Shown: piece by piece, positions 6,356 to 23,121 of the stretch
How the letters are laid out: every line of letters begins with the position of its first letter
Position numbering within the stretch: position 1 is the first letter of the stretch
Assembly (NCBI RefSeq): GCF_012272835.1
Contig: NZ_JAAWWK010000008.1
Span: 103,500 to 127,499 of the forward strand
Origin: Spongiibacter thalassae
GTDB lineage: Bacteria > Pseudomonadota > Gammaproteobacteria > Pseudomonadales > Spongiibacteraceae
Direction: 5' to 3'
DNA: 24,000 nucleotides
The notes under the pieces: model-generated
Seen by the model: only the letters and a program-made list of their open reading frames with translations
What the model was told of the DNA's origin: nothing
Database searches by the model: none
Made by a program: the position numbers and the translations under genes

Positions 6356-6599
6356 CAGAAGTTCGTTTGGGCGCGGCGATGTTTGAATAAGTCGCGCATC
6401 GGGGTCTCTCCCAAAAGCAGAGTGGGCCTTGATTGCGCGGGCATCTTGGCTTGGTGACTCGCTATATTTTTGTAATGGCGTCTTCGGGGGCTGTGCATCT
6501 TGATGGAAATGTTCTTGTGGCGGGCGTAAAGTTTCAGAAGCACTGTGAAAAAACTAGAGAGGCAATGGCATAACCGAGGGCTTTCAAAACAAAATGGAA

Positions 6600-6632
6600 C
6601 CAAGCGGGCAATTTAATGGTGGATCGACAAGG
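6600..6632 (+). repeat. Left copy of an imperfect direct repeat bracketing the AT-rich island
   Basis: CCAAGCGGGCAATTTAATGGTGGATCGACAAGG aligns with 12061-12092 CCAAGCGGCCACTTTATGGGTGAATCGACAGG, with about 28 matches over about 34 aligned columns by hand. It also overlaps a hairpin, GGTGGATCGAC-aaggcgt-GTCGATTCACC (6619-6647). Confidence 0.5.
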
Positions 6633-6801
6633 CGTGTCGATTCACCCATTACATGACCAGGTATTTCACCCATAAGATGGCCAAAGGAGCGAATTTCAGG
6701 TCGCATTTTGGGCTATTTGTAACGGCATTTGACTTGTAAGTTGACCCTATAATGACCGGAGAATACGCAAGGCGGACGGTCACCGAGGAGAAATTCTACA
6801 G

Positions 6802-6871
6802 CCTCAACGCCGCGCTCTGCGGCAAATTTGAAGCGTAGCTGAGAATTTGTCCGACAGCAGCGCATTTATAT
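6802..6871 (-). repeat. attC-like site A (last in the array, 70 bp)
   Basis: The minus strand reads ATATAAA-T-GCGCTGCTGTCGG...CCGCAGAGCGC-GGC-GTTGAGG. The first arm has 2 extra bases relative to its partner. The site starts 4 nt after the TGA stop at 6878-6876. Its central core CGCTTCAAATTTGCC is shared with sites B and D. Confidence 0.6.
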
Positions 6872-6875
6872 GGTG

Positions 6876-7805
6876 TCAGTATTGGCACTCCCATCCTCTT
6901 ACCAGCCCTGTCTCATCAAATTCGACGAGCAATTCTTTCGACAAATTAGCTCTCCGTCTTGCCTCTCTCGATATCAAATCGAAATCATTAGAAGTTCTAA
7001 ATGCGCGAACACTACTTCCTCTATACTCTTTCCACTTATTATCAACAAACTTGATAGTTCTAAATTCAATATCGTTGGCGTTTAGCTTTACGCCATTCCT
7101 AACAAAGTCGTCATCATTTTCTAGTAGTTTATGAATTGCTTTTGAGAGTAACGCATCAAATGAAATTGCTATAGCGAACGCCTCTTTCACAAATTGTTTA
7201 ATATCTGTCGGCGGTGTATCTGCACCAGCAACATGGGCCGCCTTGTGCCTTCTCAGCGATGCGCTCTTAAATATTTCAGCCAACGATAATGTTGCAGTCA
7301 ACCCTAGATTAGATGAAATTTGGGACATTTGGCGCCACGGGTCTTCAACGTTAAAAGACTTCAGAATATCTCCTATTATTGTATTGCTTATATTGGCTTG
7401 AGAATGAGCAAATGTATGGCTAGACAATTCATAGTTTGGAGTTGCTGTGGAGGAAATTTTAAGAGCATGATCTTGAATATAAGCGGGCCTATCGTCTTTA
7501 TCCAACAGGCTCAACTGGTAATTCAATGCTGAAAGCACCTCGTACGTTGCCGCTCTTTGTAGTTTCTCTGGCAGCTCGGCAAATGCGATGGTACACCTGC
7601 TGACTTCTTCCATAGCTTCTGAAGATCGCTTTTTAATATAATCTTCTAAAGATGCAAAGCTCACTACCGCAAGTCCGTTTCTGAGCATTCTCGCAATTGA
7701 ATTATGCTCTCTCTCAGTTAATGCTCTGTTCTGAACAGCATCTGTTTCAATTGAAGCGTCAAGGCACCTGATACGCTCAATAAAATCTGTTTTTGCTGAG
7801 GGCAT
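6876..7805 (-). CDS. Protein with an Rx4-6H (HEPN-like) motif, putative RNase partner of the DUF262 protein
   Basis: The motif LRRHKAAH is at aa 191-198 of the track ORF (7233-7253, AGA AGG CAC AAG GCG GCC CAT on the minus strand). ATG 7805 is preceded by GAGG and lies 1 nt after the DUF262 stop (TGAtATG). The track alternative is TTG at 7826. The gene is AT-rich like the rest of the island. Confidence 0.8.
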   Translation of the reverse strand: MPSAKTDFIERIRCLDASIETDAVQNRALTEREHNSIARMLRNGLAVVSFASLEDYIKKRSSEAMEEVSRCTIAFAELPEKLQRAATYEVLSALNYQLSLLDKDDRPAYIQDHALKISSTATPNYELSSHTFAHSQANISNTIIGDILKSFNVEDPWRQMSQISSNLGLTATLSLAEIFKSASLRRHKAAHVAGADTPPTDIKQFVKEAFAIAISFDALLSKAIHKLLENDDDFVRNGVKLNANDIEFRTIKFVDNKWKEYRGSSVRAFRTSNDFDLISREARRRANLSKELLVEFDETGLVRGWECQY

Positions 7806-7806
7806 A

Positions 7807-8865
7807 TCAAACCTCAACAGATTCAAGCATATTTTTTAGCTTTAATACTCGATTTCTAATCGCTAGTGTGTCGCCTGTAGCTTGTGTCACAGCTTTATGA
7901 AACTCAGGATCATTTTCATATAAATCTCTAGTTGCAGATAGAACGGCATCTTGCGCGCCTTCTAACTCCTGAACCCTACCCGAATCTAAAAGAGAAACTG
8001 CTACCATTTGGGCATCAAAGAGTGGTGCAATAAGTTGTTCTCTCCAGCCATTATTCAATGGCTTTTGGAACGAGAAATCCCCCCAAAGCTTCTGGCAACG
8101 TTCTATCGAATATAGAAAAATCTCCCTCAGCTCATTGACTTCTGTGTGCTGGTTTTCTGCCATAAAGTCATCCATTGCCACGGATATCTTTTTACCAAAA
8201 TTCTCCCATCTACTACGAATTGTGAAGAACCTTAGAACTAGCTCTAGATCATCCATACTCCTATAAGCGGCTGATTTATTTGAAGTTATCTTTAACTTTT
8301 TTCTTAAAAACTCATTTTCGGACAACTCAAAAAGCAAGTCATTTAATGGTCCTGCGAACGCAACATTTCTTACCTCTTGAGCTTTCAAATTCTCGCCACC
8401 AGTATTAAGTCTCAAGAAAACCTCATATTTTAATTCTGGATCAGATTGTTTGAGCAGCGTTATTACACGCATAAATGGTCTAATAGAAAGCGCCCTCTTT
8501 AATTGAGAAGGCAGCTGCTCAAATGTAAATCCGTTTAGCTCTTGAACTTCTTTCAAATCCTTCAACTTGAATTTTCCAGATAGAAACTCGTAAATGGCTG
8601 TTATTCTTTGTTTGCCATCGATAACCGTATAAGTGCCATATTCATCTTCTGAGAGATAGACAGGTGGGACGGGTATATTTAGGAGAAATGACTCAATTAA
8701 TGCGGACTGTTTTTCGACGTGCCAGCGATCCCTTCTTTGATAATGGGGAGTTATATCTATTGACTCTAACTTAACCATATCCGCTATTGCCGAAAGTGAG
8801 AAATCAGATTGTTGAGTAACGAGGCTTTCCTGTGCTCTGGCGAATTTATCTAGTATTTCTTTCAT
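7807..8865 (-). CDS. DUF262 (ParB/sulfiredoxin-fold NTPase-like) domain protein with no DUF1524 nuclease domain
   Basis: DUF262 hallmarks are present: ITPHYQRRDRW, LIESFLLNIPVPPVYL, VIDGKQRITAI (DGKQR at 8605-8619) and FLRLNTGGENLKAQEVRN. The 352-aa ORF starts at ATG 8865. Confidence 0.9.
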   Translation of the reverse strand: MKEILDKFARAQESLVTQQSDFSLSAIADMVKLESIDITPHYQRRDRWHVEKQSALIESFLLNIPVPPVYLSEDEYGTYTVIDGKQRITAIYEFLSGKFKLKDLKEVQELNGFTFEQLPSQLKRALSIRPFMRVITLLKQSDPELKYEVFLRLNTGGENLKAQEVRNVAFAGPLNDLLFELSENEFLRKKLKITSNKSAAYRSMDDLELVLRFFTIRSRWENFGKKISVAMDDFMAENQHTEVNELREIFLYSIERCQKLWGDFSFQKPLNNGWREQLIAPLFDAQMVAVSLLDSGRVQELEGAQDAVLSATRDLYENDPEFHKAVTQATGDTLAIRNRVLKLKNMLESVEV

Positions 8866-8911
8866 TTCATATCCAAATTTTCAATCTGACTTGTTGATAT
8901 CAACCATATCC

Positions 8912-8980
8912 ATATAACGCCCAGCTCAGCGGGCAATTGAAGCGTAGCGTAAATTGATCCGCTGCAGCTGTTTGTTAGGC
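8912..8980 (-). repeat. attC-like site B (69 bp)
   Basis: The minus strand reads GCCTAAC-AAA-CAGCTGCAGCGG...CCGCTGAGCTG-GGC-GTTATAT. The first box abuts the TAG stop (8983-8981) of the upstream ORF. There is one extra G in the first arm. Confidence 0.7.
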
Positions 8981-9931
8981 CTACATTTCATATAGGCTCA
9001 GTCCCATTGCACTGCCAATTACATACCAAATATCTTGCCACTTTACATTTACTAAGTCAGTTCCAACATATCTGGTTTCGTCATTACCCCTTCGTAAAAG
9101 TTTGCCATTAGCGATATAGCTGAAATCATGCCCACCAAAATTTTCCACCGTCTTTTCTTTCGGTAAAACTGTCAGTAAAGGCTCTACGTAAACGGGGTCA
9201 TCTGCGACAACTAGAAATTGATCAAAGAGATGCGCAAAACTGACCATATGCTCACCTAACTCCAAGCTATACCATTCTTCGGACATTGTATTAATTCGTA
9301 CTTCGCCTTTTTCATATTCAAAGCATTGGCCATCTAAATGCTGCACCTCATGCTCATCCTCTGGGAGATGGAATATAAAAGCAGTTACGAAAGATTTTTC
9401 ATGCAGCCATTCAATCGCATGCGGGATGACGTTTTCAATAGGCTCGAAGGACAGCTCTCGACCAGGGTGTAATGTCTTGAAGAAGCGAAGTGCTTTAGCG
9501 GATTCCTGATAGAAAAACCTATAGTCTATATACAGGGCACGATAATTCGCTGGTTCCCGCTGCATCCTTTCCTTATATATTGTTCTTACCTCATCTACAC
9601 ACGCTTTGGCATTTCGGTTTATCTCTCGACCAGTAAACCGAATTACAGTATAGCCAGCCCGCGACAAATACCTTTGCCTGACTGCATCTTTCTCTAGTTG
9701 TTCGGGAGTAGAGTGGTAAGCATGTCCATCAAGCTCGATTATCAGACGTGCATCTCTTAAGATAAAATCAACTCTATAACGACCATGCTTTTCTTTATCA
9801 CCAAACCATTGCTCACTTTCTATTGCGTTGGCAAGATCATTTAGCTCTTTACTAAATTCTGCCTCAATATGAGAAGGCCCTCGATCTCTATACCAGCCTG
9901 GAGCATCTTTTGGCTGTCCTGGGTACTTCAT
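8981..9931 (-). CDS. DUF559/Vsr-like endonuclease-fold domain fused to an unrecognised C-terminal domain of about 190 aa
   Basis: The N-terminal region YRVDFILRDARLIIELDGHAYHSTPEQLEKDAVRQRYLSRAGYTVIRFTGREI matches the DUF559 pattern (D-F...IE-DG--H...D--R--L---G--V-RF). ATG 9931 is preceded by AAGGAG. I do not recognise residues from about 120 to 316. Confidence 0.85.
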   Translation of the reverse strand: MKYPGQPKDAPGWYRDRGPSHIEAEFSKELNDLANAIESEQWFGDKEKHGRYRVDFILRDARLIIELDGHAYHSTPEQLEKDAVRQRYLSRAGYTVIRFTGREINRNAKACVDEVRTIYKERMQREPANYRALYIDYRFFYQESAKALRFFKTLHPGRELSFEPIENVIPHAIEWLHEKSFVTAFIFHLPEDEHEVQHLDGQCFEYEKGEVRINTMSEEWYSLELGEHMVSFAHLFDQFLVVADDPVYVEPLLTVLPKEKTVENFGGHDFSYIANGKLLRRGNDETRYVGTDLVNVKWQDIWYVIGSAMGLSLYEM

Positions 9932-9946
9932 AGAACTCCTTTTGCG

Positions 9947-10004
9947 GCCTAACGCTTAAAGCAGCCGCGCGCATTTATTCGTCGGTTGCCTTTACTTGTT
10001 ATGC
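9947..10004 (-). repeat. attC-like site C (short, 58 bp)
   Basis: The minus strand reads GCATAAC-AAG-TAAAGGCAACCGACG-loop-CGCGGCTGCTTTA-AGC-GTTAGGC. The arms pair over 12 bp, with 2 extra bases and 1 mismatch on the first arm. The first box and spacer encode the last residues and the stop of the upstream ORF. Confidence 0.6.
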
Positions 10005-10336
10005 AATTCTTTAGTGCGAGCTGCATCAATACTGTAAATGTTTCTGCCACTTACCTTTCCCTCTTGTACTGACAAAACTACTCGGCCCCGGTATGTGTTT
10101 GGTAGTCGGCCCCAATCTCTGACGAAGACTTGAAGTCCACTGGGTAATCGCACATAGAATGCAGGATCAGCGGCAGACTTACCGGAAGAGTGCTTGGTGT
10201 AAGAAACCACCTCGGCCTCAATAAATTTTTTTCCGCCAGTGCCGGACTCAAACTGAAAATATGTAAGCGCACCGATGGCTAGGCAAACAGCCAGAACGCC
10301 AGCGGCTAACTTGATGTTCAATTCAACTGACTGCAT
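9992..10336 (-). CDS. Small membrane-anchored protein (one N-terminal TM helix plus a beta-rich C-terminal domain)
   Basis: From ATG 10336 the product is MQSVELNIKLAAGVLAVCLAIGALTYF... (114 aa). This ATG lies inside the GTTATGC box of the preceding attC-like site. The track start at 10360 is a TTG further inside that site. No family was recognised. Confidence 0.6.
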   Translation of the reverse strand: MQSVELNIKLAAGVLAVCLAIGALTYFQFESGTGGKKFIEAEVVSYTKHSSGKSAADPAFYVRLPSGLQVFVRDWGRLPNTYRGRVVLSVQEGKVSGRNIYSIDAARTKELHNK

Positions 10337-10422
10337 AACGCCCGCAACAAGGGCGCACAAATAAGCGCAGCGTTTTGGGCGTCCCAGCGACCATCGGGAG
10401 CGAATGCTTGCGCTTGTTATGT
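10333..10422 (-). repeat. attC-like site C2 (long, 90 bp)
   Basis: The minus strand reads ACATAAC-AAG-CGCAAGCA...TGTTGCG-GGC-GTTATGC. The terminal stem is 7 bp with one extra G on the first arm. The central part is longer and pairs less clearly. Confidence 0.55.
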
Positions 10423-10438
10423 TTTATTACGTATTTCA

Positions 10439-10666
10439 TTATTTGTTTATTTTCGTTTTAGTCTTACAAATCCACCAAAAGGATATTCCTGATACTGAGA
10501 ACAACCCAACGGATACGAACCTATGCCAATCATTGAAACATACGACTCCATTATTGGTGGTGATACATTCCTGGAACCACAACCGTAGCCCAATACCAGC
10601 CAAACATATAGTAATGAGCAGAGGGAGCATTCTTTCCAACCTTGAAGCGAGGCTATCGTCACTCAT
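10439..10666 (-). CDS. Possible small two-TM membrane protein (75 aa, or 63 aa from the internal Met)
   Basis: The ORF starts at an ATG and has two hydrophobic stretches (LPLLITICLAGIGLRLWF and FVSVGLFSVSGISFWWI). Its stop lies 16 nt before attC-like site C2, which fits the cassette layout. The SD at M1 is weak, and GGAAAGA precedes M13. Overlapping ORFs exist on both strands. Confidence 0.35.
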   Translation of the reverse strand: MSDDSLASRLERMLPLLITICLAGIGLRLWFQECITTNNGVVCFNDWHRFVSVGLFSVSGISFWWICKTKTKINK

Positions 10667-10711
10667 TCTCTGACCATTTTTTCAATGCGGTTAACTTGGG
10701 TACTCGCGAAA

Positions 10712-10783
10712 ACATAACGCTCGCAACACCGGGCAATTTGGAGCGCAGCGGAAAATTGTTCCGCGTGCTTGCGCTTGTTATAA
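10712..10783 (-). repeat. attC-like site D (72 bp)
   Basis: The minus strand reads (GGCC)TTATAAC-AAG-CGCAAGCACGCGG...CCGGTGTTGCG-AGC-GTTATGT. The first arm has two extra G residues. The TAA stop of the upstream ORF lies inside the first box. Confidence 0.7.
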
Positions 10784-11584
10784 GGCCGTTGCACCGATTA
10801 ACTCGTTTTCTAGGCTTTTTAAGTTAAATACCCTCACTTCTTGAGGAAACATGAAGGTCACTGCGCTCGACTCAACCTCACGCGTAAACTGCTCAAGTGC
10901 CTCACCTTCCAAGTCGGTCGCTATTGCAAGTAGCAACGTCATTTTGTCGCCTTTAATATCTGGGAGCTCTTGAAATGTCCTTTGGATCTTAACCAATGAA
11001 GATCTGACGTTTCTAAGAGATGTGGAGTCTTTTATATACTTAACTTCAATGGCGTATACTTGGTTGCTTTTCTTACCTATTGCATCAAATAAGAATTGGG
11101 ATTTTCCCGACCTAAGCATTACTTCCTTTTCAATTTCATCAAATTCTTGTGACAGCTTGGTTATTACAAGCTCTTCCGCAAGGTAGTGAGTAGATGCTGT
11201 ACTTCTACGGATGATATTTCTATATGCCAAATCCACATTGCTAATATCTGAACCTACTGAATCCTCTACTACCTCAGATTCAGCTTCTATCTCAGAACTT
11301 AACTTCTCAAGCCTGTCGCCGGCTGTCGGCTTCCCAAAGAGCTTAAGAAAATTATCTTCATCCTGAAAATCAGAAGGAGCGTAGAGAACTTTGTGATTGA
11401 AGTTTAAGGTTAGGAAGAACAGAAAAATCAAAATCGTAGGAAATATCATCAAAAACCATACATACAAGTCCTGACTCCCTTCCTTTAAAAAGGGCAAGAC
11501 TATTGTTCCACTCACTTCTGCCAGCCCGGCAAATATAGCGATAATGGTTAGCGGATTACTTACCTTTTTAATCGTTTCGATCAT
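10778..11584 (-). CDS. Two-TM membrane protein with a C-terminal PD-(D/E)xK-like (restriction-endonuclease-fold) motif
   Basis: The N-terminal helices are LTIIAIFAGLAEVSGTIVLPF and LYVWFLMIFPTILIFLFFLTLNF, followed by an acidic linker. Then come LAEELV...FLFDAIG...YAIEVKY, with D167, E180 and K182 at 11039-11086. ATG 11584 is preceded by GGAG. Confidence 0.8.
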   Translation of the reverse strand: MIETIKKVSNPLTIIAIFAGLAEVSGTIVLPFLKEGSQDLYVWFLMIFPTILIFLFFLTLNFNHKVLYAPSDFQDEDNFLKLFGKPTAGDRLEKLSSEIEAESEVVEDSVGSDISNVDLAYRNIIRRSTASTHYLAEELVITKLSQEFDEIEKEVMLRSGKSQFLFDAIGKKSNQVYAIEVKYIKDSTSLRNVRSSLVKIQRTFQELPDIKGDKMTLLLAIATDLEGEALEQFTREVESSAVTFMFPQEVRVFNLKSLENELIGATAL

Positions 11585-11604
11585 GGGCGCTCCAATTTCG
11601 CCTT

Positions 11605-11615
11605 GGCCTTATAAC
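11605..11615 (-). repeat. Orphan GTTRRRY-type core box at the head of the array (junction where attI or a further attC would be expected)
   Basis: The minus strand reads GTTATAAGGCC, the exact reverse complement of GGCCTTATAAC at the start of site D (10787-10777). The sequence upstream (11616 onward) does not resemble the other sites. Confidence 0.5.
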
Positions 11616-12038
11616 ATTATTATTATGAAGACCGGGGCCTTATATCACTGAGGCTCCTTATCTCGGGGGCTAAAATTGCAATGGAACCAGGAATCCTACA
11701 GATTCCATGGGCTTGGATGAATTTCGTCGAGTTAGTGATTGATGGTAGCAAGACTAGTTCCCTCTATCTGCTTTAGCTCCTTTTCCCCTGATCATATACC
11801 CACTCATATAAAAATCAATTAGTTAGCACTGGCAAAAAGGTGATAGTGAGCGTGTGGCTCCTGAAAAAGGGGAAAGTGGCGATTTGGGGGCAGCTTTTTT
11901 TTAAGCTGAGTGTCTGTTTTCTCCGAAGGGGGCGCTGGTGACTGTCCGCTTCTGACGAGCAGCCGACCTTCCTTGCGCCACTTGGAAGTGATGGGACGGG
12001 ATTATCAACAGGGTTTAGTGAGTGTCATCCCCCGATTA

Positions 12039-12060
12039 TGGGGTAGAGTCTGGGGTAGAG
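12039..12060 (+). repeat. Tandem 10-mer TGGGGTAGAG-tc-TGGGGTAGAG
   Basis: Two exact copies lie at 12039-12048 and 12051-12060, directly abutting the right-hand bracket repeat. Confidence 0.6.
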
Positions 12061-12092
12061 CCAAGCGGCCACTTTATGGGTGAATCGACAGG
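12061..12092 (+). repeat. Right copy of the imperfect direct repeat bracketing the island
   Basis: CCAAGCGGCCACTTTATGGGTGAATCGACAGG aligns with 6600-6632. It lies 22 nt from the 3' end of tRNA-Leu. Confidence 0.5.
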
Positions 12093-12114: not shown

Positions 12115-12201
12115 TGGTGCCCAGGAGAGGACTTGAACCTCCACGGCCGTGAAGCCACTAGCACCTGAAGCTAGCGTGTCTACCAATTTCACCACCTGGG
12201 C
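12115..12201 (-). tRNA. tRNA-Leu (anticodon CAG), class II with long variable arm, CCA encoded
   Basis: The minus strand reads GCCCAGGTGGTGAAATTGGTAGACACGCTAGCTTCAGGTGCTAGTGGCTTCACGGCCGTGGAGGTTCAAGTCCTCTCCTGGGCACCA. The acceptor stem is GCCCAGG/CCTGGGC. The anticodon stem is CTAGC/GCTAG with loop TTCAGGT. The T arm is GAGG-TTCAAGT-CCTC. Confidence 0.95.
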
Positions 12202-12239: not shown

Positions 12240-12268
12240 AATTTACTGATTAACCGCTTTTTTGTCAA
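12240..12268 (-). promoter_or_regulatory. Candidate sigma70 promoter for tRNA-Leu
   Basis: On the minus strand there is a perfect TTGACA (12268-12263), a 17-nt spacer and TAAATT (12245-12240). A GC-rich discriminator GCGCGCC follows, as is typical of stable-RNA promoters. Confidence 0.5.
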
Positions 12269-12327
12269 CGCTTGAGTTACACTATAGGCAAATTTTTTTT
12301 TGCATTGAGCACAGGAACTACTACTGC

Positions 12328-14712
12328 ATGGCTAAAAGCCGCAAAGAACACAATGATCCCCACGCCGCCCGCGAAGCGGAACGCTACGACAATCCGGTGC
12401 CCAGCCGGGAGTACATTCTTGAGAAATTAGGTGATGCCGAGCAGGGGATGTCTGCGTCGGCACTGCGCAAGTTGCTGGGTATAGAAGGTGAAGACGAGCA
12501 GGAGGGCCTGCGCCGACGGTTGAAGGCCATGCTGCGCGACGGTCAGCTGATCGAGGGGCGGCGCGGCCGCTTGCAGGCGCCAGTGGCGGGCGAGGCGGTT
12601 GTCGGTCGTGTGCAGGGCCATCGCGAGGGCTATGGTTTCGTTATTGTCGATGGCGATGACGATGTGTATTTGCACAATCGGCAGATGCAGCAGGTGTTTG
12701 ATGGTGACGTGGTGTCGGTAGAGGTGACCGGCAGCGATCAGCGCGGCCGTCGCGAAGGCATTATTGTCGAGGTGGTGGAGCGCAATACCCAGCAGCTGGT
12801 AGGCAAGCTGGTAGATCATCGCGGTCGTGCGATGGTGGTGCCGGAAAATACCCGTATTCAAAACTGGATCGCCCTGGAAGACGGGGATTTCCAGGGGGCG
12901 TCTAACGGTGACTACGTGATGGTGGAAATCACCCGTCAGCCGGGGATGCGCCAGCAGGCCCGGGGGCGGATAGTCGAGTTGCTGGGCGATCGGCAGACGG
13001 TGGGTGTGGCAACGGAGCTGGCCCTGCGCAGTCATGAGATACCCTTCGACTGGCCCGAGGAAGTTGAGGAGGAGGCGCGAAAGTTCGGTTCCGAGCCTCT
13101 GGAAAAAGACAAGAAACACCGGGCTGACCTGCGCGATTTGCCGCTGGTGACCATCGACGGTGAGGATGCCCGGGATTTTGATGACGCGGTCTACGCCGAA
13201 AAGAAAAAGTCGGGTGGTTGGCGTCTTTGGGTGGCTATTGCCGATGTCTCCCACTATGTGAAAATTGGTTCAGCGCTGGATGCCGAGGCTCATCGTCGGG
13301 CAACGTCGGTGTATTTTCCCGACCGGGTCGTGCCCATGCTGCCAGAGGCATTGTCCAACGGCTTGTGCTCGCTCAAGCCCGAGGTTGATCGCCTGTGTAT
13401 GGTGTGTGAAATGACCATCAGCGCCAGCGGTCGGCTGAGTGGTTACACCTTCTACGAAGCCGTCATGCGCTCTCATGCGCGTCTTACCTATAACGAGGTA
13501 GGCGCCATGCTGAGGGTGAAAGGCGCTGATCCAGAGAAGGACAGCGGTCGCTTCCACCAGTTTATTCCGCAGTTGCAAGAGTTGCACAATCTGTATCGCG
13601 CCCTGCGGGAAGCCCGCAGTGAACGGGGTGCCATCGACTTTGAAACCGTGGAGACTCGCATTGTCTTCAGTGATGAGCGTCGGATCGAAGCGATTGTGCC
13701 GGTGCATCGCCACGACGCTCACCGAATGATTGAGGAGTGTATGCTGATCGCCAATGTGGCGACGGCAAAAACACTGGAAAAGTCGGGGCTGGATGCACTG
13801 TATCGCGTGCATAATGGCCCGTCGGACCAAAAGCTCGGCAATCTGCGGGAGTTTCTCGGTGAAATTGGTCTGGGTTTGAAGGGTGGAGAGAAACCGTCTC
13901 CCAAAGATTATCAGGCCTTGCTCTCAACGATTGGTGATCGGCCTGATGGCCAGATGATTCAAACCATGCTGCTGCGCTCACTGAGTCAGGCGGTTTACCA
14001 GCCCGATAACGAAGGCCATTTTGGCCTGAACTACACCGGATACACCCACTTTACTTCGCCGATTCGGCGCTACCCCGATCTGTTGGTGCATCGGGCCTTG
14101 CGCTATTTGATGCGCAACGGTGGCGGCGACGCCGAAAGGCATTTCAGCATCGAGCCGAGTGCACCGGCTTTGCCGCGCAAGAAGATCTATCCCTATGATC
14201 TGGAAGCCCTGCTGACCCTGGGTGCCCACTGCTCGATGGCCGAGCGGCGCGCGGATGATGCCAGTCGTGATGTCATGGCATTTTTGAAGTGCGAGTTCCT
14301 GCAGGATCACGTCGGTAACGAATTCGAGGGCGTGATTGCTGCGGTCACCGGGTTTGGCTTGTTTGTTGAACTGCAGGATTTGTATATCGAAGGTCTGGTG
14401 CATATTTCGGCGCTGCCGCAGGACTACTACCAGTTTGATCAGGCCCACCAGCGGTTGATCGGTGAGCGCACACGTCGGGTTTATCAGTTGGGAGACAGCC
14501 TGCGGGTGCAGGTCATGGGCGTCGATCTGGACGAGCGCAAGATCGATCTCGCTGTGGTGGCTGGCGCGAATACGCGGCGAAATAAACCCTCGGTGCGCGA
14601 GGCTCTTGCCAAGGGCGAAGTGCCCGGTGCGAAGGCCAAGAAGGGGGCAGCCAAGCTGCCGCCGGGCAAGAAGGGTCCTGGTGGTGCCAATAAAAAACGT
14701 CGCCGTCGCTAG
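12328..14712 (+). CDS. rnr: Ribonuclease R
   Basis: The ORF has the RNB-domain pattern (LPLVTIDGEDARDFDDAVY, SVYFPDRVVPMLPE, FTSPIRRYPDLLVHR), a C-terminal S1 domain and a Lys/Arg-rich tail. The start is placed at ATG 12328 (MAKSRKEH). The conserved neighbour rlmB follows. Confidence 0.95.
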   Translation: MAKSRKEHNDPHAAREAERYDNPVPSREYILEKLGDAEQGMSASALRKLLGIEGEDEQEGLRRRLKAMLRDGQLIEGRRGRLQAPVAGEAVVGRVQGHREGYGFVIVDGDDDVYLHNRQMQQVFDGDVVSVEVTGSDQRGRREGIIVEVVERNTQQLVGKLVDHRGRAMVVPENTRIQNWIALEDGDFQGASNGDYVMVEITRQPGMRQQARGRIVELLGDRQTVGVATELALRSHEIPFDWPEEVEEEARKFGSEPLEKDKKHRADLRDLPLVTIDGEDARDFDDAVYAEKKKSGGWRLWVAIADVSHYVKIGSALDAEAHRRATSVYFPDRVVPMLPEALSNGLCSLKPEVDRLCMVCEMTISASGRLSGYTFYEAVMRSHARLTYNEVGAMLRVKGADPEKDSGRFHQFIPQLQELHNLYRALREARSERGAIDFETVETRIVFSDERRIEAIVPVHRHDAHRMIEECMLIANVATAKTLEKSGLDALYRVHNGPSDQKLGNLREFLGEIGLGLKGGEKPSPKDYQALLSTIGDRPDGQMIQTMLLRSLSQAVYQPDNEGHFGLNYTGYTHFTSPIRRYPDLLVHRALRYLMRNGGGDAERHFSIEPSAPALPRKKIYPYDLEALLTLGAHCSMAERRADDASRDVMAFLKCEFLQDHVGNEFEGVIAAVTGFGLFVELQDLYIEGLVHISALPQDYYQFDQAHQRLIGERTRRVYQLGDSLRVQVMGVDLDERKIDLAVVAGANTRRNKPSVREALAKGEVPGAKAKKGAAKLPPGKKGPGGANKKRRRR

Positions 14713-14747
14713 GGCGACGATCAGGAATTAAGTGCAGGAAGTCGTTT

Positions 14748-15485
14748 GTGAGTGAAACCCTATTTGGACTCCACGCTGTATTAACAGCGCTGGAGCGCCG
14801 CCCCGATGCCCTTCGGGAAATATATGTGTTGCAGGGGCGCCGCGATAAGCGTTTGCAGAAGGTGTTGGACCTGGCGGCGCGGCATCAGTTGCCCATTACG
14901 GAGCGCAGTCGCGAGGCCCTCGACAAAATGGTTTCGGGCCGACACCAGGGCGTAGTCGCGGTGGCCGATGCCATGGCCCCGGGGAGTGAAAAAGACATTC
15001 CGGGAATTGTTGAGGCCGCCGGCCGTGACGCGCTGATTCTGGTGCTCGACGGTGTTACCGACCCCCATAACCTCGGCGCCTGCCTGCGCAGTGCGGATGC
15101 TGCCGGGGTGCAGTTAGTGATTGCGCCCAAGGATAATTCCGCCAGCCTGAATGCCACCGTCAGCAAAGTGGCCTGCGGTGCGGCTGAGGCGGTGCCCTTC
15201 GTGCAGGTGACGAATCTCGCCCGTTGTCTGACCCAGTTACAGGACCTGGGCGTGTGGATAGTGGGGATGGCCGGTGAGGCCGACGACTCGCTATATGACT
15301 GCGACCTGACCGGGCCTCGCGCGCTGGTTATGGGGGCCGAGGGCAGTGGTATGCGCAGGCTGACCAAGGAGCGTTGTGACTACCTCGCCAAACTGCCGAT
15401 GGCAGGAGAGGTCAGTAGCCTTAATGTGTCGGTAGCCACGGGTATTTGCCTTTTTGAAGCAGTACGACAGCGTCGTTCGCTATGA
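14748..15485 (+). CDS. rlmB: 23S rRNA (guanosine-2'-O)-methyltransferase RlmB (SpoU/TrmH family)
   Basis: SpoU motifs are present (LDGVTDPHNLGACLRSADAAG, ALVMGAEGSGMR, SLNVSVATGICLFE). The gene has a GTG start and sits in the conserved position after rnr. Confidence 0.9.
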   Translation: MSETLFGLHAVLTALERRPDALREIYVLQGRRDKRLQKVLDLAARHQLPITERSREALDKMVSGRHQGVVAVADAMAPGSEKDIPGIVEAAGRDALILVLDGVTDPHNLGACLRSADAAGVQLVIAPKDNSASLNATVSKVACGAAEAVPFVQVTNLARCLTQLQDLGVWIVGMAGEADDSLYDCDLTGPRALVMGAEGSGMRRLTKERCDYLAKLPMAGEVSSLNVSVATGICLFEAVRQRRSL

Positions 15486-15510
15486 TTTGGCTAAAAAATA
15501 CACGAATTCC

Positions 15511-15539
15511 TTGCATATACCGGCCCCCTTGCCTAAAAT
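15511..15539 (+). promoter_or_regulatory. Candidate sigma70 promoter of the rpsF operon
   Basis: TTGCAT (15511-15516), a 17-nt spacer and TAAAAT (15534-15539) lie about 95 nt upstream of the rpsF ATG. Confidence 0.5.
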
Positions 15540-15633
15540 CCGCGCTCTTGATTTAACGGCAGCCACGTTCAGTTAACGGGGTTGCCCTCCTTGCCACACC
15601 ATAATGGGTGGCTTAACCCGTAAGGAGCATACA

Positions 15634-16071
15634 ATGCGTCACTACGAAATCGTGTTTCTGGTTCATCCAGATCAAAGCGAGCAGGTCCCGGGCATGGTTG
15701 AACGCTATACCCAGGCAATCGAGAAGGATGGCGGCAAAGTCCACCGTCTGGAAGATTGGGGCCGTCGCCAGCTGGCATACCCCATCAACAAAATCCACAA
15801 AGCTCACTATGTGCTGATCAACGCAGAAGCAACTGCTGAAGCGATCGACGAGCTGACAACCAACTTCCGCTACAACGATGCCGTGCTGCGTAATCTGGTT
15901 ATCCGCTGTGATGAAGCCGTGACTGAAGAGTCGCCAATCATGAAGGCAGAGAAAGAGAGCCGCGAGCGTCGCAGCCGCAGTGAGCAGCGCACCGAGCGTC
16001 GCGACAACACTGAGCAGTCGTCTGGCAGCAGCGAAGAATCAGCCGAAAAGGCTGAGACCAGCGCCGAATAA
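15634..16071 (+). CDS. rpsF: 30S ribosomal protein S6
   Basis: The product begins [18 protein letters not shown] and has an acidic C-terminal tail. ATG 15634 is preceded by AAGGAG. Confidence 0.97.
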
Positions 16072-16096
16072 TAGCGGATAGAGTGAGGATATAAAG

Positions 16097-16324
16097 ATGG
16101 CACGTTTTTTCCGTCGTCGTAAGTTTTGCCGCTTTACTGCGGAAGGTGTTAAGCAGATCGATTACAAAGATCTGGACACATTGAAAGCCTATGTTTCTGA
16201 AACTGGCAAAATTGTTCCCAGCCGCATCACAGGAACCAATGCCAAGTATCAGCGCCAGTTGTCTACCGCGATCAAACGCGCGCGTTTTCTGGCTTTGCTG
16301 CCGTACACCGACAGCCATAAATAA
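16097..16324 (+). CDS. rpsR: 30S ribosomal protein S18
   Basis: The product is [47 protein letters not shown]. Confidence 0.97.
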
Positions 16325-16344
16325 GTTGGGCTGTTAAACGACCC

Positions 16345-17187
16345 ATGCGCCCCCTCGCAGAGTTTGTAATGAAAGGGCGCTTCCAGGCCACGGCAGTCGC
16401 CGCGCTTGGAATCGCCACATTGATGTTTGCGTGGGTGGGTGCTGCGGCAGCCGCCCTGGTCACCCTGAGAAAGGGAACGACTGAAGGCATATATGTTGTT
16501 TTCTGGGCGCTGCTACCCGCAATTGCGGTAGCCAAATTCGCTCAGGATGTCGGTCCGCTGTGCATGTTGCTGGTTTCAGCTGGCGCGGCGATCGTCTTGC
16601 GAAATACTCGGTCCTGGCCCTTGGCACTGGTGTTTTCAGTGTTTGGGGGAATGTGCACAGCGCTGTTTCTGCAGCAATTTGCCCAGGACTACCTGGCGGC
16701 AATTCTGGCAACGGTGCAGCCTATGCTGGATCAGTTGCGCAGCCAGTCAGCGGGGCGCTTGCCCCAGATTCTGACCGGCGACATTGCCGCGGTGATCGGT
16801 AGTAGCACCGTGCTGTGGAGTGTGCTGGCGCTGATGTTGGCGCGGTGGTGGCAGTCGCTGCTCTATAATCCCGGTGGTTTTCGCACCGAGATGTGGAGCA
16901 TGCGCTTACCCGCTGTGGCCACGGTGGTGCTGGTTGCGGTCATGCTGTTGATTGGCCGCATGGGTGAGGAATTTCGCTTCTGGGGCGTAATGTGTTTACT
17001 GCCTTTTTTGGCGGCGGGACTGTCGCTGATACACGGGGTAGTAGGGCGTTTCGGCTTGGGTCGGGTGTGGTTGGTAGTGTTTTATATCGCGCTGTTGTTA
17101 TTGGGACCTCTGTGGGGGTTGTTGATACTGGCAGCGATTGTAGATAGTTGGATTGATATCAGACGGCGTTTGTCCAAAACCGCATAG
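16345..17187 (+). CDS. Polytopic inner-membrane protein conserved between rpsR and rplI
   Basis: This 280-aa ORF has multiple hydrophobic helices. A hypothetical membrane protein occupies the same position in Pseudomonas-like genomes. No function can be inferred. Confidence 0.75.
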
Positions 17188-17221
17188 GGTGTTGTGCAGG
17201 CGCGCAGGAGAGGTGAGAACC

Positions 17222-17668
17222 ATGCAAGTGATTCTGCTTGAGAAAATCGGCAAGCTGGGTAATCTGGGCGATCAGGTTAATGTTAAGTCGGGCTACGGCC
17301 GCAACTTTCTGATCCCCTTTGGCAAGGCTGTGCCTGCCACTGGCGACAATGTTGCAGCGTTCGAAGCACGTCGCGCTGAGCTCGAAGCTGCTGCCGCTGA
17401 AAAGCGTGCCGAAGCTGATGCACGCGCAGCCAAACTGGCTGAGCTGGCGGTGACCATCGCTGCGAACGCGGGTGAAGGTGGCAAGCTGTTCGGTTCTATT
17501 GGCACGCGCGATATCGCTGATGCGATTTCAGCGGCCGGTGTTGAAGTGAACAAGAGCGAAGTGCGTATGCCTGAAGGTCCGATCCGTGACATCGGTAACT
17601 ACGAGATCGACATTCAGCTGCACAGCGACGTAGTACAAGCCGTCGCGTTGAGTGTAGTTGCTGAGTAA
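17222..17668 (+). CDS. rplI: 50S ribosomal protein L9
   Basis: The product begins [39 protein letters not shown] 17222 is preceded by GGAGAGG, and the product is 148 aa. Confidence 0.97.
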
Positions 17669-17766
17669 AAAGCTCAGCCAGCCAGACGTCAGGCAGCCTG
17701 AGCGGCCCGACGCCAGCTGAACGCAGAGGCGGGTGCGGACAGTGTGTTCGCGCTGGCCCCTGCTTG

Positions 17767-17808
17767 AAAAAGCGCGTGCGACCTTGCTGGTCGGCGCGCT
17801 TTTTTTTT
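17767..17808 (+). terminator. Rho-independent terminator after rplI
   Basis: AAAAAGCGCGTGCGACC-ttgc-TGGTCGGCGCGC is followed by a T9 run (17800-17808). Confidence 0.75.
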
Positions 17809-17905
17809 GCCACAATGCCTGACTGCTGTCATTCCATTGCCGGTGTTCGGCAACGGGCTGATCCAACCATTCAGAGCTGCTGATAGTTCCGGTAAGAGTA
17901 TCCCT

Positions 17906-19315
17906 GTGCAAGCTGATTCCTATTCCGATACCCCGCCCCCCGATTTCGATATGGGTGAGCTGAGCGAGTTAAAGCGCCCTCCCTACTCTCTGGAAGCAGA
18001 GCAGTCGGTATTGGGTGGCCTGATGATTTCCGGCAACAGCTGGGACTCGGTGGCGGACCTGGTCAGCGAGGGTGATTTCTTCAAGCCCCAGCACCGTCGC
18101 ATCTACGCCTGCATGGAGCGCTTGGTGGAGCAGGAGCAGCCCATCGATGTGGTCACGCTGGCAGAAACCCTGGCGCGCAACGGTGAGCTGGATGAGGTGG
18201 GTGGCACGAGTTATCTGGCTGAGGTGGCCAATGCAACGCCCTCGGTCGCCAATATCCGCGCCTACGCTCAGGCGGTGCGCGAGCGCGCGACGTTCCGCGC
18301 CCTGATCGCGGCAGCAAACTCCATTGTTGATGCCAGCTTTAACCCGGAGGGGCGCAGCAGCGACGATGTGCTCGATGAGGCCGAGCGCCGCATCATGCAG
18401 ATCTCCGAAGAGCGGCCCAAGACCGGCGGTCTGGAGCCCATTAACCCCCTGTTGAAGCAGGCCGTTGAAAAGATCGACGAGCTGTTTAACAGCGATGAGG
18501 CCATCACCGGCCTCAGTACCGGTTTTGAAAAGCTCGACGAAATGACCTCGGGCCTGCAAAAGTCCGACTTGATTATCGTCGCCGCCCGTCCGTCGATGGG
18601 TAAAACCACCTTCGCGATGAATCTGGTGGAAAATGCCCTGTTGCGCTACGACCAGCCGATGCTGGTGTTCAGTATGGAGATGCCCGCGGCCCAGCTGATG
18701 ATGAGGATGCTGTCGTCGGTGGGCAAAATCGACCAGACCAGGGTTCGCAGCGGTCGCCTCGAAGAAGAGGATTGGCCCAAACTCAGCGCCGCTGTCAGCA
18801 AGTTGAAGGACCGGAAGCTGTTCATTGACGATACCCCGGCGCTGACGCCGACCGAGGTGCGTTCCCGGGCGCGCAAGGTGCTGCGGGAGCACGGCAGCAT
18901 CGGCATGATTATGCTGGATTACCTGCAGTTGATGCAGGTGGCCGGAAGCAGTGAGGGGCGTACCGCGGAGATCTCCGAAATTTCCCGCTCGTTGAAGGGA
19001 ATCGCCAAGGAGTTTGAGTGTCCGGTCATCGCTCTATCGCAGCTGAACCGCGCATTGGAGCAGCGTCCGAACAAGCGCCCGGTCAACTCGGATCTGCGGG
19101 AATCCGGGGCCATCGAGCAGGATGCCGATGTGATAATGTTCATCTACCGCGACGAGGTGTACAACGAAGAAAGCCAGGATAAGGGCGTTGCCGAAATTAT
19201 TATCGGCAAGCAGCGTAACGGTCCAATTGGTACTGCGCGCCTGAGCTTTATCGGCAAGTTTACCCGCTTTGAAAACCTGGCCTTCGGCAATTACGACGAA
19301 GATCCCGGCTATTGA
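17906..19315 (+). CDS. dnaB: Replicative DNA helicase DnaB
   Basis: The ORF aligns by eye with E. coli DnaB (PPYSLEAEQSVLGGLM, LIIVAARPSMGKTTFAMNLVENA, DYLQLM, SQLNRALEQRPNKRPVNSDLRESGAIEQDADVIMFIYRDEVY). The start is uncertain: either GTG 17906 (AAGAG upstream) or ATG 17951. The track start at 17807 lies inside the rplI terminator. Confidence 0.93.
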   Translation: MQADSYSDTPPPDFDMGELSELKRPPYSLEAEQSVLGGLMISGNSWDSVADLVSEGDFFKPQHRRIYACMERLVEQEQPIDVVTLAETLARNGELDEVGGTSYLAEVANATPSVANIRAYAQAVRERATFRALIAAANSIVDASFNPEGRSSDDVLDEAERRIMQISEERPKTGGLEPINPLLKQAVEKIDELFNSDEAITGLSTGFEKLDEMTSGLQKSDLIIVAARPSMGKTTFAMNLVENALLRYDQPMLVFSMEMPAAQLMMRMLSSVGKIDQTRVRSGRLEEEDWPKLSAAVSKLKDRKLFIDDTPALTPTEVRSRARKVLREHGSIGMIMLDYLQLMQVAGSSEGRTAEISEISRSLKGIAKEFECPVIALSQLNRALEQRPNKRPVNSDLRESGAIEQDADVIMFIYRDEVYNEESQDKGVAEIIIGKQRNGPIGTARLSFIGKFTRFENLAFGNYDEDPGY

Positions 19316-19324
19316 GCGCGGGCG

Positions 19325-20080
19325 CTATGCGCCGTCGCTCTCCTGGCTGGGGCGCGCTTCAACAAAACGGCCAAAGAATACCCCCACCTCGAACAGCAGC
19401 CACATAGGCACCGCTAACAGCAATTGCGAGATCACATCCGGTGGGGTGAGCAGCATGCCGAATATAAAGCAGCCGACGATAATGTAGGGGCGTTTCTCCC
19501 CGAGTGTTTTGCGGTCGATGACGCCAGCGCTGATCAGCAAAATGGTCGCGATAGGAATTTCAAAGGCGATGCCAAAGGCAAAGAATAGCTTTAGCGCGGT
19601 GTCGAGGAAGCGGGCGATATCCGGGGTGTAAGCGACACCCTCAGGGGTGATGCCGCTGAAAAAGCCGAATACCAGCGGAAACACAACATAATAGGCGAAG
19701 GCCAGTCCCAGATAAAACAACAGTACACTCGACACCAGCATGGGGGCAGCAATCCGCTTTTCGTGGCGGTACATGCCCGGCGAAATAAAGGCCCAGGCCT
19801 GGTGAAGAATCACGGGAATGGCCAGGCAGAAGGCGCTCATCAACACCAGCTTGAAAGGGGTGAGAAAGGTGGAGGCGACCTCAGTGGCAATCATGCTGCT
19901 GCCTTCCGGCAGGTAGCGACGCAGAGGCTCGGCAACGAAGGTATAAATCTCGGCAGAAAAGGGCATCAGGGCGATGGCACAGACCAGTATCGCCAGCACG
20001 ATACGCAGCAAGCGGTCGCGCAGCTCGGTCAGGTGTGCAACCAGCGGCTGGCCGGGGTCGTTGTGGGCATCTGTACTCAT
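19325..20080 (-). CDS. tatC: Twin-arginine translocase subunit TatC
   Basis: This 251-aa polytopic protein ([14 protein letters not shown]...) lies downstream of tatA and tatB. Confidence 0.95.
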
Positions 20081-20454
20081 TCAGCTTCTTTCTTGTCTGT
20101 GGGTGCAGTGCGCAGGGTGTCGTTGGCGACCGCCGTATTGGGGTCTGTCCCCGATGCGGGGGCAATGCTGTTTTCGATGTTTTTCAGTTCATCGCCAGCG
20201 GAGTTCAGCGTGCTTTGCAGTTTGGCTTTGCTTTCGTTCAGCGAATCCAGCACCGCCTCGTTATGCAGTTGCCGACGGATTTCATCGGCGCCGACCTCGC
20301 GCTCGATTTCCTGACGCACGTTGTTAAAACTGCGGCGCAGACGACCGAGCCACAGGCTGGTGGTGCGAATAGCCGAGGGCAGACGTTCCGGCCCAAGCAC
20401 CAGTAACCCGAGCACAGCAATCACCAGCAGTTCGGCAAAACCGATGTCAAACAT
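20077..20454 (-). CDS. tatB: Twin-arginine translocase subunit TatB
   Basis: The product begins [26 protein letters not shown]. The gene overlaps the tatC start by 4 nt. Confidence 0.93.
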
Positions 20455-20457
20455 AGT

Positions 20458-20694
20458 TTATTTTGACTCGTTTTTGGCGTCGCTTTTCGCTTGGGCGTTG
20501 GCGTCTTCGCCTTCGGTTTCTTTTTGTTCCAGGTTTTTGCTCTCGTCCTTGTCGCCGTCGAGGCTATCCTTGAAGCCCTTGACCGCGCCACCGAGGTCGC
20601 TGCCGATGTTTTTGAGCTTTTTGGTGCCGAACAACAACACCACAATTGCCAGAACAATAAGCAATTGCCAAATACTGATGCCACCGAATCCCAT
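20458..20694 (-). CDS. tatA: Twin-arginine translocase subunit TatA
   Basis: The product begins [45 protein letters not shown] 20694 is preceded by GAGGAA. The longer track ORF (to 20742) overlaps the end of hisE. Confidence 0.93.
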
Positions 20695-20704
20695 GGGATA
20701 TTCC

Positions 20705-21061
20705 TCAATTGTTTCCGTTGCTGCCGCGTTGGGCTTTTTCAATGTGACCCGACAGGCCGAAGCGTCGGGCGAGTTCGTTCAGCACAGCCTGATGATCGCC
20801 GCCAAGCTGCTGAAGCATAATCATGCTATGAAACCATAAATCGGCCGTTTCCCCTATCAGCTCGTCCAAATTTTCACTGTGCTGAGCGTCCTTGGCGGCG
20901 ATGATGGTTTCTGTCGCTTCTTCGCCGACCTTTTCCAGTATTTTGTTCAGGCCCTTGTGGTACAGGCTGGCCACATAGGAGCTGTCTGCGCTGGCGGACT
21001 TGCGTTCGGCCAATACGGCGTCGAGCTGCTGGAGTATGTGTGTGCCTGGGTTATTTTCCAT
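20705..21061 (-). CDS. hisE: Phosphoribosyl-ATP pyrophosphatase
   Basis: The motifs [31 protein letters not shown] and [14 protein letters not shown] are present. The gene overlaps the 3' end of hisI. Confidence 0.92.
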
Positions 21062-21443
21062 AAATGGTGTCCGGGTCTTTGATAACGTCTTCGCGGGCCT
21101 GCCATTGCGTGTCTTGCAGGCCCCGGTAGAAACAGCTTTGTCTGCCGGTGTGGCAGGCGATGTCGCCCAATTGTTCTACTTGCAGCAGCAAGGCGTCGCC
21201 GTCGCAGTCCAGTGCAATGTCGTGGAGTATCTGGGTGTGGCCGGAGCTTTCGCCTTTGCGCCAGATGGCCTGACGGGAGCGGGACCAGTATATCGCGCGT
21301 TGTTCCGTCACCGTCAACGAGAGGGCCTCGCGATTCATCCACGCCATCATCAGCACACGGCCACTGCGATGGTCCTGGGCGATGGCGGCGACAAGTCCGT
21401 CGCTGTTCCACTTTATCTGGTCTAGCCAGCTGTCGTTGCTCAT
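21051..21443 (-). CDS. hisI: Phosphoribosyl-AMP cyclohydrolase
   Basis: The motifs [44 protein letters not shown] and [27 protein letters not shown] are present. The start is ATG 21443, or GTG 21449 as in the track. Confidence 0.92.
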
Positions 21444-21480
21444 AGTCACTACTGCTTGCTTGAAAGGCGCCTACTTTACC

Positions 21481-23112: not shown

Positions 23113-23121
23113 AGTCCTTCC

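Follow-up and report, generated by a model that had tools for sequence, protein, structure and literature searches.

How does an array of integron cassettes come to stand in a bacterial chromosome without an integrase, and what kind of element holds it there? The question is raised by a 24,000-nucleotide stretch of Spongiibacter thalassae DNA (contig NZ_JAAWWK010000008.1, positions 103,500 to 127,499; hereafter the window, numbered from its first letter), in which five attC-like palindromes follow one another on the minus strand inside a low-GC block. Such arrays have been described as CALIN (clusters of attC sites lacking integron integrase), defined as at least two attC sites on the same strand and less than 4 kb apart (Cury et al. 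2016, IntegronFinder; PMC4889954), and the published CALIN contain a mean of five sites (PMC4889954). An initial annotation of the window had proposed an integrase-less cassette array. Our analysis bears this out through the architecture of the attC sites, the covariation of their stems, the chaining of their boxes, their cross-detection with known attC sites and the lack of intI within the 24 kb, and we consider it very likely that the array is a true integron cassette array without an integrase. The annotation was right about the array but missed three things around it, namely an attI-like site, an IntI-type gene in a strain of the same species and an enclosing Tn7-like element. The best overall explanation, which we hold with good confidence, is an attI-like site followed by five cassettes, a CALIN, within a transposase-less Tn7-like remnant; taken on its own, the placement of the array in such a remnant is probable.

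All five sites are read on the minus strand, with limits set by the covariance models described below. The attC of cassette 1 occupies 10712-10783, that of cassette 2, which has a long variable loop, 10334-10422, that of cassette 3 9947-10004 and that of cassette 4 8912-8980, while the terminal and partly degenerate attC of cassette 5 lies at 6802-6873. Successive sites are spaced by 290 to 2039 nt. Re-reading the window recovered every palindrome that the initial annotation had listed, each tied, as it had claimed, to the 3' end of a minus-strand open reading frame (ORF): the site starts within the stop codon, abuts it or lies no more than 16 nt past it. The five share a common geometry of ..TAAC, three nucleotides, a 5-bp stem, a bulged G, a 3-bp stem, an optional second bulge and a further 3-bp stem; the return arm is bulge-free and is followed by xGC and GTTA. 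Extra bases had been reported on the first arm only, and the bulges do all fall on the 5' arm of the top strand; once the bottom strand, here the plus strand of the window, is folded, they stand on its 3' arm. A conserved centre had also been assigned to three of the sites (A, B and D), an assignment that left out 10712; the sequence CGCT[A/G]CGCT[T/C]CAA(A)TT is common to 6802, 8912 and 10712 and partial at 10334. At 6802-6873 the R'' box is degenerate, with AAA for AAC, and the spacer is shortened. DNA folding of the bottom strands gives R-box pairing, an internal loop and 3'-arm bulges at three of the five sites; one of the others folds without R-box pairing and the second prefers an alternative fold. 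The fold z-scores range from -0.9 to -3.4.

Structure that is conserved over sequence is a hallmark of attC sites, and we examined it with covariance models. MAFFT alignments of the five sites were non-structural and unusable for a model, so we started from a single site: model R1 was built from 10712-10783 alone with a hand-written structure, and model R2 from all five window sites. Across the 24 kb, R1 picks out precisely the remaining four sites, each on the minus strand and with an E-value between 1.8e-10 and 5e-4; its next-best match has an E-value of 0.15. The attC of cassette 1 scores 108 bits with R1 and 80.7 bits with R2, that of cassette 4 scores 42.7 and 86.3 bits, and that of cassette 5 scores 28.9 and 73 bits; the E-values for cassette 2 are 7.7e-5 with R1 and 3.7e-6 with R2, and those for cassette 3 are 5e-4 and 8.9e-12. 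In the R1-guided alignment the L stem is 98% paired, with compensatory changes in 8 of its 11 pairs. Its covariation score is reached by 0 of 500 shuffles, and pairing drops to 23-41% when the register is slid.

The model also recognizes attC sites beyond the window. In 40 kb from three plasmid class 1 integrons, R2 detects the attC sites of blaVIM-2 (45 bits, E=5e-12), arr-3 (7e-6) and dfrA14 (1e-5) and, more weakly, those of aac(3)-Ia (E=0.007) and aac(6')-Il (E=0.12). These matches lie on the correct strand, directly 3' of a gene, and nothing else in the 40 kb reaches E<0.5. In 1.04 Mb of intI-centred loci from many phyla, R2 yields 35 further matches, all in same-strand arrays beside intI, and it finds none in 160 kb of non-integron loci that include related pieces of Spongiibacteraceae chromosome. 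An Rfam search of the window matched only a tRNA, Rfam being without an attC family. Because architecture, covariation, chaining, cross-detection and clean controls agree, the five sites group structurally with validated attC sites and form no dispersed repeat.

The same searches gave two observations on other arrays. The R2 arrays in four of the loci fetched for comparison, L078 (18 sites), L076, L039 and L056, which are metagenome-assembled genomes (MAGs) of Acidobacteriota and Eisenbacteria, lie on the same strand as intI and downstream of it, the layout of an 'inverted' integron. The blaVIM-2 attC of plasmid pJB12 (L086, 5359-5430) is identical to site 8912-8980 at 48 of 72 positions and has the common centre CCGCTGCGCTCC; identity among the array's own attC sites, at 48-54 positions over 72-75 columns, is comparable. 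This likeness might hint at the bacteria in which the blaVIM-2 cassette arose, although it may also reflect convergence.

The junctions between cassettes fit an origin by site-specific recombination. The initial annotation had described the boxes as chained, the R' box of each site being the reverse complement of the next R'' box, and recomputing the five pairs gives agreement at 11/11, 10/10, 7/7, 8/8 and 8/9 positions, with the 7/7 pair extending to 8. The first pair links 11615-11605, upstream of cassette 1, to the first attC. The chaining rule also holds in a control, the integron of Microbulbifer guangxiensis (L007). The cassettes would have entered singly, as circles, through IntI, which would recombine a folded bottom-strand attC with attI and cross over at G|TT; a joining of attC to attI at this point would explain why each R' box complements the R'' box of the next cassette.

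At the head of the array, an attI-like site, GATATAAGGCC-N20-GTTATAAGGCC, extends over 11605-11665 of the minus strand. The first G|TT crossover falls within it at 11615/11614, and all 11 positions of its R box pair with the R'' box of the first attC (11/11). The 55 nt from 11665 to 11611 align with the attI of the M. guangxiensis integron, itself located by the same chaining rule, with a score of 42; shuffled sequences score 16.6 +/- 3.0, and 0 of 2000 reach 42. By these sequence features, an attI-like site is retained at the head of the array. Cassette expression would depend on a promoter near attI. A promoter scan of the minus strand returned promoter-like matches at 11818-11791 and 11648-11619, in a total number equal to the shuffle expectation.

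What the window lacks is the integrase gene, which is normally located just upstream of the array and divergent from it. The statement of the initial annotation that no intI ORF or remnant is visible holds within the 24 kb under both domain search and tblastn: no ORF of the window encodes a tyrosine recombinase (PF00589), and tblastn of five full-length IntIs against the window gives a best E-value of 0.38. From the array, the search reached at least 6.8 kb leftwards and 12 kb rightwards, to the ends of the window. By its sites and genes, the locus falls short of a complete integron only in lacking intI.

A conspecific contig suggests what may have stood at this position. Contig L001 (GCA_041565615.1), from a MAG, encodes an RNase R protein identical to that of the window, and its flank is 98.27% identical to the window in nucleotide sequence over 3172 nt. 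Just inside the shared sequence by tRNA-Leu, L001 contains the 3'-terminal 41 codons of a recombinase gene, read on the plus strand. Among the matches listed, this fragment is 92% identical to the IntIs of Cellvibrionaceae and Microbulbifer; the Microbulbifer protein (L007) carries what we take to be the IntI-specific insertion. The position and orientation of the recombinase gene, divergent from the cassettes, are those of intI, and the gene ends about 20 nt before the sequence common to both strains. This common subterminal region occupies 11942-12066 in the window and follows the IntI-type stop codon in L001. Going inward, blastn of the window against L001 shows 100% identity over 92 nt and 92% over a further 51 nt, after which the two are unrelated. 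Since a conspecific strain carries an IntI-type gene at the same locus, intI was, as judged from these sequences, most likely lost or replaced here rather than never present. In the window, the place of intI is taken by a stretch of 280 nt with a hairpin, CAGCTTTTTTTTAAGCTG, at 11891-11908; the interval 11666-11941 matches none of the fetched loci.

Several further observations concern intI and the end beside it. L001 contains about 48 extra nucleotides inside the transposon end (195-242, TTACCATATGCTGGCCGTTGCGGATATTTACAAAAATATGGCCAAAGC; the corresponding window positions are 11992/11999), and this stretch holds two more copies of a subterminal repeat of the GGCCA... type in opposite orientation. 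Damaged intI genes, frameshifted, truncated or internally deleted, are present in three other Cellvibrionales MAG contigs (L004 3463-4034, L005 332-487 and L100 355-845), and decay of intI seems common in this clade. In L005, from a Zhongshania sp., the intI remnant is followed 61 nt later by a window-like terminus, TGTCGATTAAGCC, with the shared TGTCCGCT motif, which hints that intI beside this type of end is an old arrangement.

The block that encloses the array, 6635-12090 (5.46 kb), has a GC content of 42.6%, against 54% and 58% in its flanks, and its ends are inverted, TGT...ACA. The tRNA-proximal terminus lies at 12067-12090 on the minus strand (TGTCGATTCACCCATAAAGTGGCC read inward) and forms an inverted repeat with 6635-6658. 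The tRNA-distal terminus lies at 6635-6683 on the plus strand (TGTCGATTCACCCATTACATGACC), with its second subterminal repeat at 6665-6682. The 18-nt subterminal repeat is present in three copies, all at the borders of the island, and three matches were obtained in 0 of 100 shuffles; by their placement, these repeats may be transposase-binding sites. The landmark of the attachment site is a tRNA-Leu(CAG) gene at 12115-12201 on the minus strand (ARAGORN; Rfam tRNA, 53.6 bits), which precedes RNase R in L001, L002, L089, L090, L091 and L099. The terminus at 12090 is situated 24 nt from the 3' end of this tRNA in both the window and L001; in L091 the distance is 25 nt.

Contigs L090 and L091 come from a Zhongshania-like bacterium and encode the same RNase R protein. 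In L090, plain chromosome lies upstream of the tRNA, giving an empty site. In L091 (JGI 3300002145, contig S2t7BSb_10544386; 1-9768), an insertion of at least 9.7 kb carries BrxR, a complete Wadjet operon (JetABCD) and TniQ (PF06527), of which the fetched stretch covers only the C-terminal part and the Pfam assignment is precomputed. The end of the insertion, GGCCAAGTATTGGGTGAATCGACA, lies 25 nt from the tRNA, and the match to L090 picks up again exactly after ...TCGACA. The proximal terminus of the window matches this element end at 20 of 24 positions. The fixed distance from the tRNA, the TniQ-encoding element and the empty site are therefore what a Tn7-like transposon guided by a protein target selector would show. 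An intact or partial integron is present in approximately 10% of Tn7-like transposons, and insertion downstream of tRNAs is reported for them (PMC8649781); homing of a TnsD-type selector to tRNA-Leu has been demonstrated experimentally in a cyanobacterial system (PMC10293859). In the window, no ORF encodes TnsA, TnsB, TnsC or TniQ/TnsD. Both ends are present without tns genes, and the block thus appears to be a non-autonomous remnant with the integron platform as its sole cargo.

Searches for relatives of the element were less productive. A metagenome scan for the terminus returned four loci, of which one is a chance match in hsdS and three have only cargo beside the end. Scanning metagenomes for the L091 TniQ fragment brought up no relative, and a protein search for the full-length L091 TniQ did not return it; the context of the best named match, P0189, contains no transposon. 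At 6597-6629 on the minus strand there is a degenerate extra copy of the proximal end (27/33), which points outward and lies 5 nt from the 6635 terminus; together with the distal end it forms a 14-nt inverted repeat around AGGCG. It is possibly a relic of an older tandem insertion, and no distal end of such an older element was found left of 6597.

Some of these results weigh against the explanation that we favour. The fold z-scores are weak at two attC sites (-0.9 and -1.2). Both covariance models derive from the window's own sites, which makes them a test of cross-recognition with no independent threshold. The intI search covered 24 kb, and an intI elsewhere in the genome is possible. Only the last 41 codons of the recombinase are visible in L001, and the two strains have unrelated sequence left of about 11942, with no clean deletion between them, so replacement or recombination is as possible as a simple loss of intI. 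No tnsA, tnsB or tnsC was seen in any related locus, the L091 stretch ending inside tniQ, and the element has no 5-bp target duplication, its flanks being AGGCG and GGAGT. The promoter-like matches are at chance level, and for this reason no single promoter is singled out.

These points give room to other explanations of the locus. One holds that the palindromes are repeats of the repetitive extragenic palindromic or miniature inverted-repeat transposable element type, or transcription terminators, with no link to integrons. Imperfect palindromes at gene 3' ends, three of them with a common conserved centre, fit such a description, but only five copies exist in the window, confined to one strand and to the low-GC block, with none in the 160 kb of related chromosomal DNA. 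The description also leaves the chained G|TT junctions unexplained, the derived model detects validated attC sites, and the one terminator-like match that overlaps a site is on the opposite strand; we regard this explanation as extremely improbable. Less far-fetched, although still unlikely, is a reading of the low-GC block as an integrase-type genomic island, or as the product of an ordinary insertion at a hotspot, with the 33-nt direct repeats at 6597-6629 and 12058-12090 as attL and attR. The block is indeed flanked by direct repeats that match at 27 of 33 positions, it has neither a 5-bp target duplication nor tns genes in the window, and the tRNA-Leu flank is variable among relatives, with HipBA in L099 as an example. 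An island of this kind does not account for inverted termini that start with TGT and carry repeated subterminal motifs, or for the same terminus ending a TniQ-encoding insertion at the same tRNA distance with a precise empty site. Integrase-type islands, moreover, usually duplicate the 3' end of the tRNA, which is excluded from the repeat in the window.

The remaining two alternatives accept the array and dispute how it came to be without intI. The array may never have stood beside an integrase here, being instead a fragment that moved in from an intact integron at another place in the genome, or a set of cassettes inserted at a secondary site; both are known ways in which a CALIN can form. 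The lack of a clean deletion between the window and L001, which are unrelated left of about 11942, speaks for this, as does the published finding that 95% of CALIN are not near a recognisable intI pseudogene (PMC4889954). On the other side, a site homologous to the attI of a related integron stands exactly at the head of the array, with its R box chained to the first attC, and the conspecific IntI-type gene is placed and oriented as expected within the same transposon end; we judge this alternative quite unlikely. Very unlikely, in our estimate, is an assembly artefact, in which a draft or metagenome assembly joined the array to the transposon end at a collapsed or chimeric junction. Assemblies do tend to break at integron loci (contig L001 stops within intI and L089 at the tRNA; L005 and L100 begin at intI remnants), and identity between the strains falls stepwise at 11942-11999. 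The window is nevertheless continuous and has no junction repeat that would cause a mis-join, 11666-11941 has features of its own such as the hairpin at 11891-11908, and decayed or truncated intI genes are common in the clade (L004, L005 and L100), so that a real loss is plausible.

We thus return to an integron platform that most likely lost its integrase inside a Tn7-like element. The intI gene, expected towards 12090, would have been deleted, leaving a CALIN. Without IntI the array would be static; cassettes 1-4 have intact boxes and could still be excised if IntI were provided in trans, and the terminal two-gene cassette is probably fixed because its attC has AAA for AAC and a shortened spacer. 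We infer both the order of these events and any current mobility. A bolder possibility, which we rate as doubtful, is that 6635-12090 is a doubly non-autonomous vehicle, a mini Tn7-like transposon with the integron platform as its one cargo, moved as a unit by the TnsABC and TniQ of sibling elements that home to tRNA-Leu(CAG), acting in trans, with cassettes reshuffled by IntI in trans. If this were true, small defence cassettes could spread between strains with neither enzyme on board.

The five cassettes, all on the minus strand, encode proteins of which several resemble defence components. Cassette 1 (10718-11614, 897 nt) contains an ORF at 10778-11584 for a protein of 268 aa, the translation of which has hydrophobic N-terminal stretches. 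Its C-terminal part gives weak matches to REase_II and CARF_PDDEXK of PADLOC (E of about 0.003-0.005) and to an NCBIfam restriction enzyme (4e-4), and is weakly predicted to be restriction-enzyme or PD-(D/E)xK-like. Cassette 2 (10339-10717, 379 nt) has an ORF at 10439-10666 that encodes 75 aa, largely hydrophobic and with no known domain, and cassette 3 (9953-10338, 386 nt) an ORF ending at 9992 that encodes approximately 110-122 aa, likewise with no known domain. Cassette 4 (8918-9952, 1035 nt; ORF 8981-9931, 316 aa) encodes an endonuclease-like N-terminal domain (Pfam DUF559, 1e-14; MTES_1575, 5e-12; PDB 3hrl, 'endonuclease-like protein', 1e-5) fused to a C-terminal part without a recognised domain.

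Cassette 5 (6808-8917, 2110 nt) holds two overlapping genes. The upstream gene, at 7807-8865, encodes a ParB/DUF262 protein (Pfam GmrSD_N, 3.5e-26), which in PADLOC matches NsnA (1e-73) and PD-T4-2_A (2e-38). The downstream gene, at 6876-7826, encodes a RiboL-PSP HEPN protein (HEPN_RiboL-PSP, PF18735, 9e-12) that matched no PADLOC profile, PD-T4-2_B being absent even at E<=10. The domain pair listed for PD-T4-2, a validated two-gene anti-phage system, is DUF262 plus a PF18735 HEPN (PMC10952713), and cassette 5 has this pair. Menshen, which consists of NsnA, the ABC ATPase NsnB and the effector NsnC (PMC12065111), was considered for cassette 5 and rejected, as the sole partner of the NsnA-like protein is the HEPN protein, with no NsnB ATPase and no NsnC effector. 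Integron cassettes have been reported to encode anti-phage systems (bioRxiv 10.1101/2024.07.02.601719), and a role in defence is a reasonable prediction for the cassettes described here. Searching all fetched loci by tblastn with six cassette proteins gave no homologue, and exact-protein look-ups of the window's RNase R (TTG start), DUF262 and DUF559 proteins gave no record.

The two flanks of the block differ in their conservation. The right flank, 12262-24000, is a conserved core that is syntenic with Zhongshania and contains genes for RNase R, an RlmB-type methylase, S6, S18, L9, DnaB, TatCBA, a HisIE-type protein, UbiB and SCP2. The left flank is not common to the Zhongshania relatives and contains genes for malic enzyme, a luciferase-like monooxygenase, TetR, a ferredoxin reductase and a fatty-acid desaturase. 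At the junction of tRNA-Leu and RNase R elsewhere, L099 has HipBA and L089 breaks at the tRNA. This junction looks like a hotspot for defence cargo in Spongiibacteraceae. The same family of ends carries Wadjet in a related bacterium, and the site would therefore act as an exchange point for defence genes in this family.

There are published precedents for CALIN, for integrons carried by Tn7-like transposons, for homing to tRNAs and for defence cassettes, and the locus therefore leaves current understanding unchanged. Its practical value lies in the candidate defence cassettes, namely the PD-T4-2 domain pair, the DUF559-type endonuclease fusion and the protein with a hydrophobic N-terminus and weak nuclease-like matches. 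Compared with PD-T4-2 (Vassallo et al. 2022), cassette 5 is alike in pairing a DUF262/ParB-like protein with a PF18735 HEPN protein. It differs in that the DUF262 protein scores higher against Menshen NsnA, while the HEPN protein lacks a match to PD-T4-2_B.

Among attC families, the window's sites resemble the blaVIM-2 type in their common centre and their bulged top-strand G. Their geometry (AAC, 3 nt, 5 bp, bulge, 3 bp, bulge, 3 bp) is also that of the Vibrio cholerae repeats (VCRs). In the attC sites of the VCR and of aadA, the first bulged base is C on the top strand and G on the bottom, whereas in the window it is G on the top and C on the bottom; both types are found among the class 1 sites that we scored. 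A reading of the bulged top-strand G as an anomaly was dropped because the blaVIM-2 and dfrA14 attC sites share this feature.

The enclosing element is similar to Tn7 (class 2 integron), to Tn402/Tn5053 (class 1) and to the elements of Benler et al. 2021 in having an integron platform between TGT...ACA inverted ends, and related elements likewise insert at a fixed distance downstream of a conserved gene. Unlike them, the copy in the window has no tns or tni genes, and the integron platform is seen as the sole cargo (5.46 kb) of a stripped Tn7-like element; its attachment site is tRNA-Leu(CAG) rather than glmS or a res site, and its cassettes are defence-like or without assigned function rather than antibiotic resistance genes. 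As a CALIN, the array is typical in its five same-strand attC sites, in lacking intI within 24 kb and in that most of its cassettes are small and without assigned function. It differs in keeping a recognisable attI and in having a conspecific intI at the locus, whereas most published CALIN have no such trace, and its probable origin by loss of the integrase is therefore traceable. With the attI and five cassettes kept, intI gone and a strain of the same species still carrying intI, the locus offers a clean case of how a CALIN arises.

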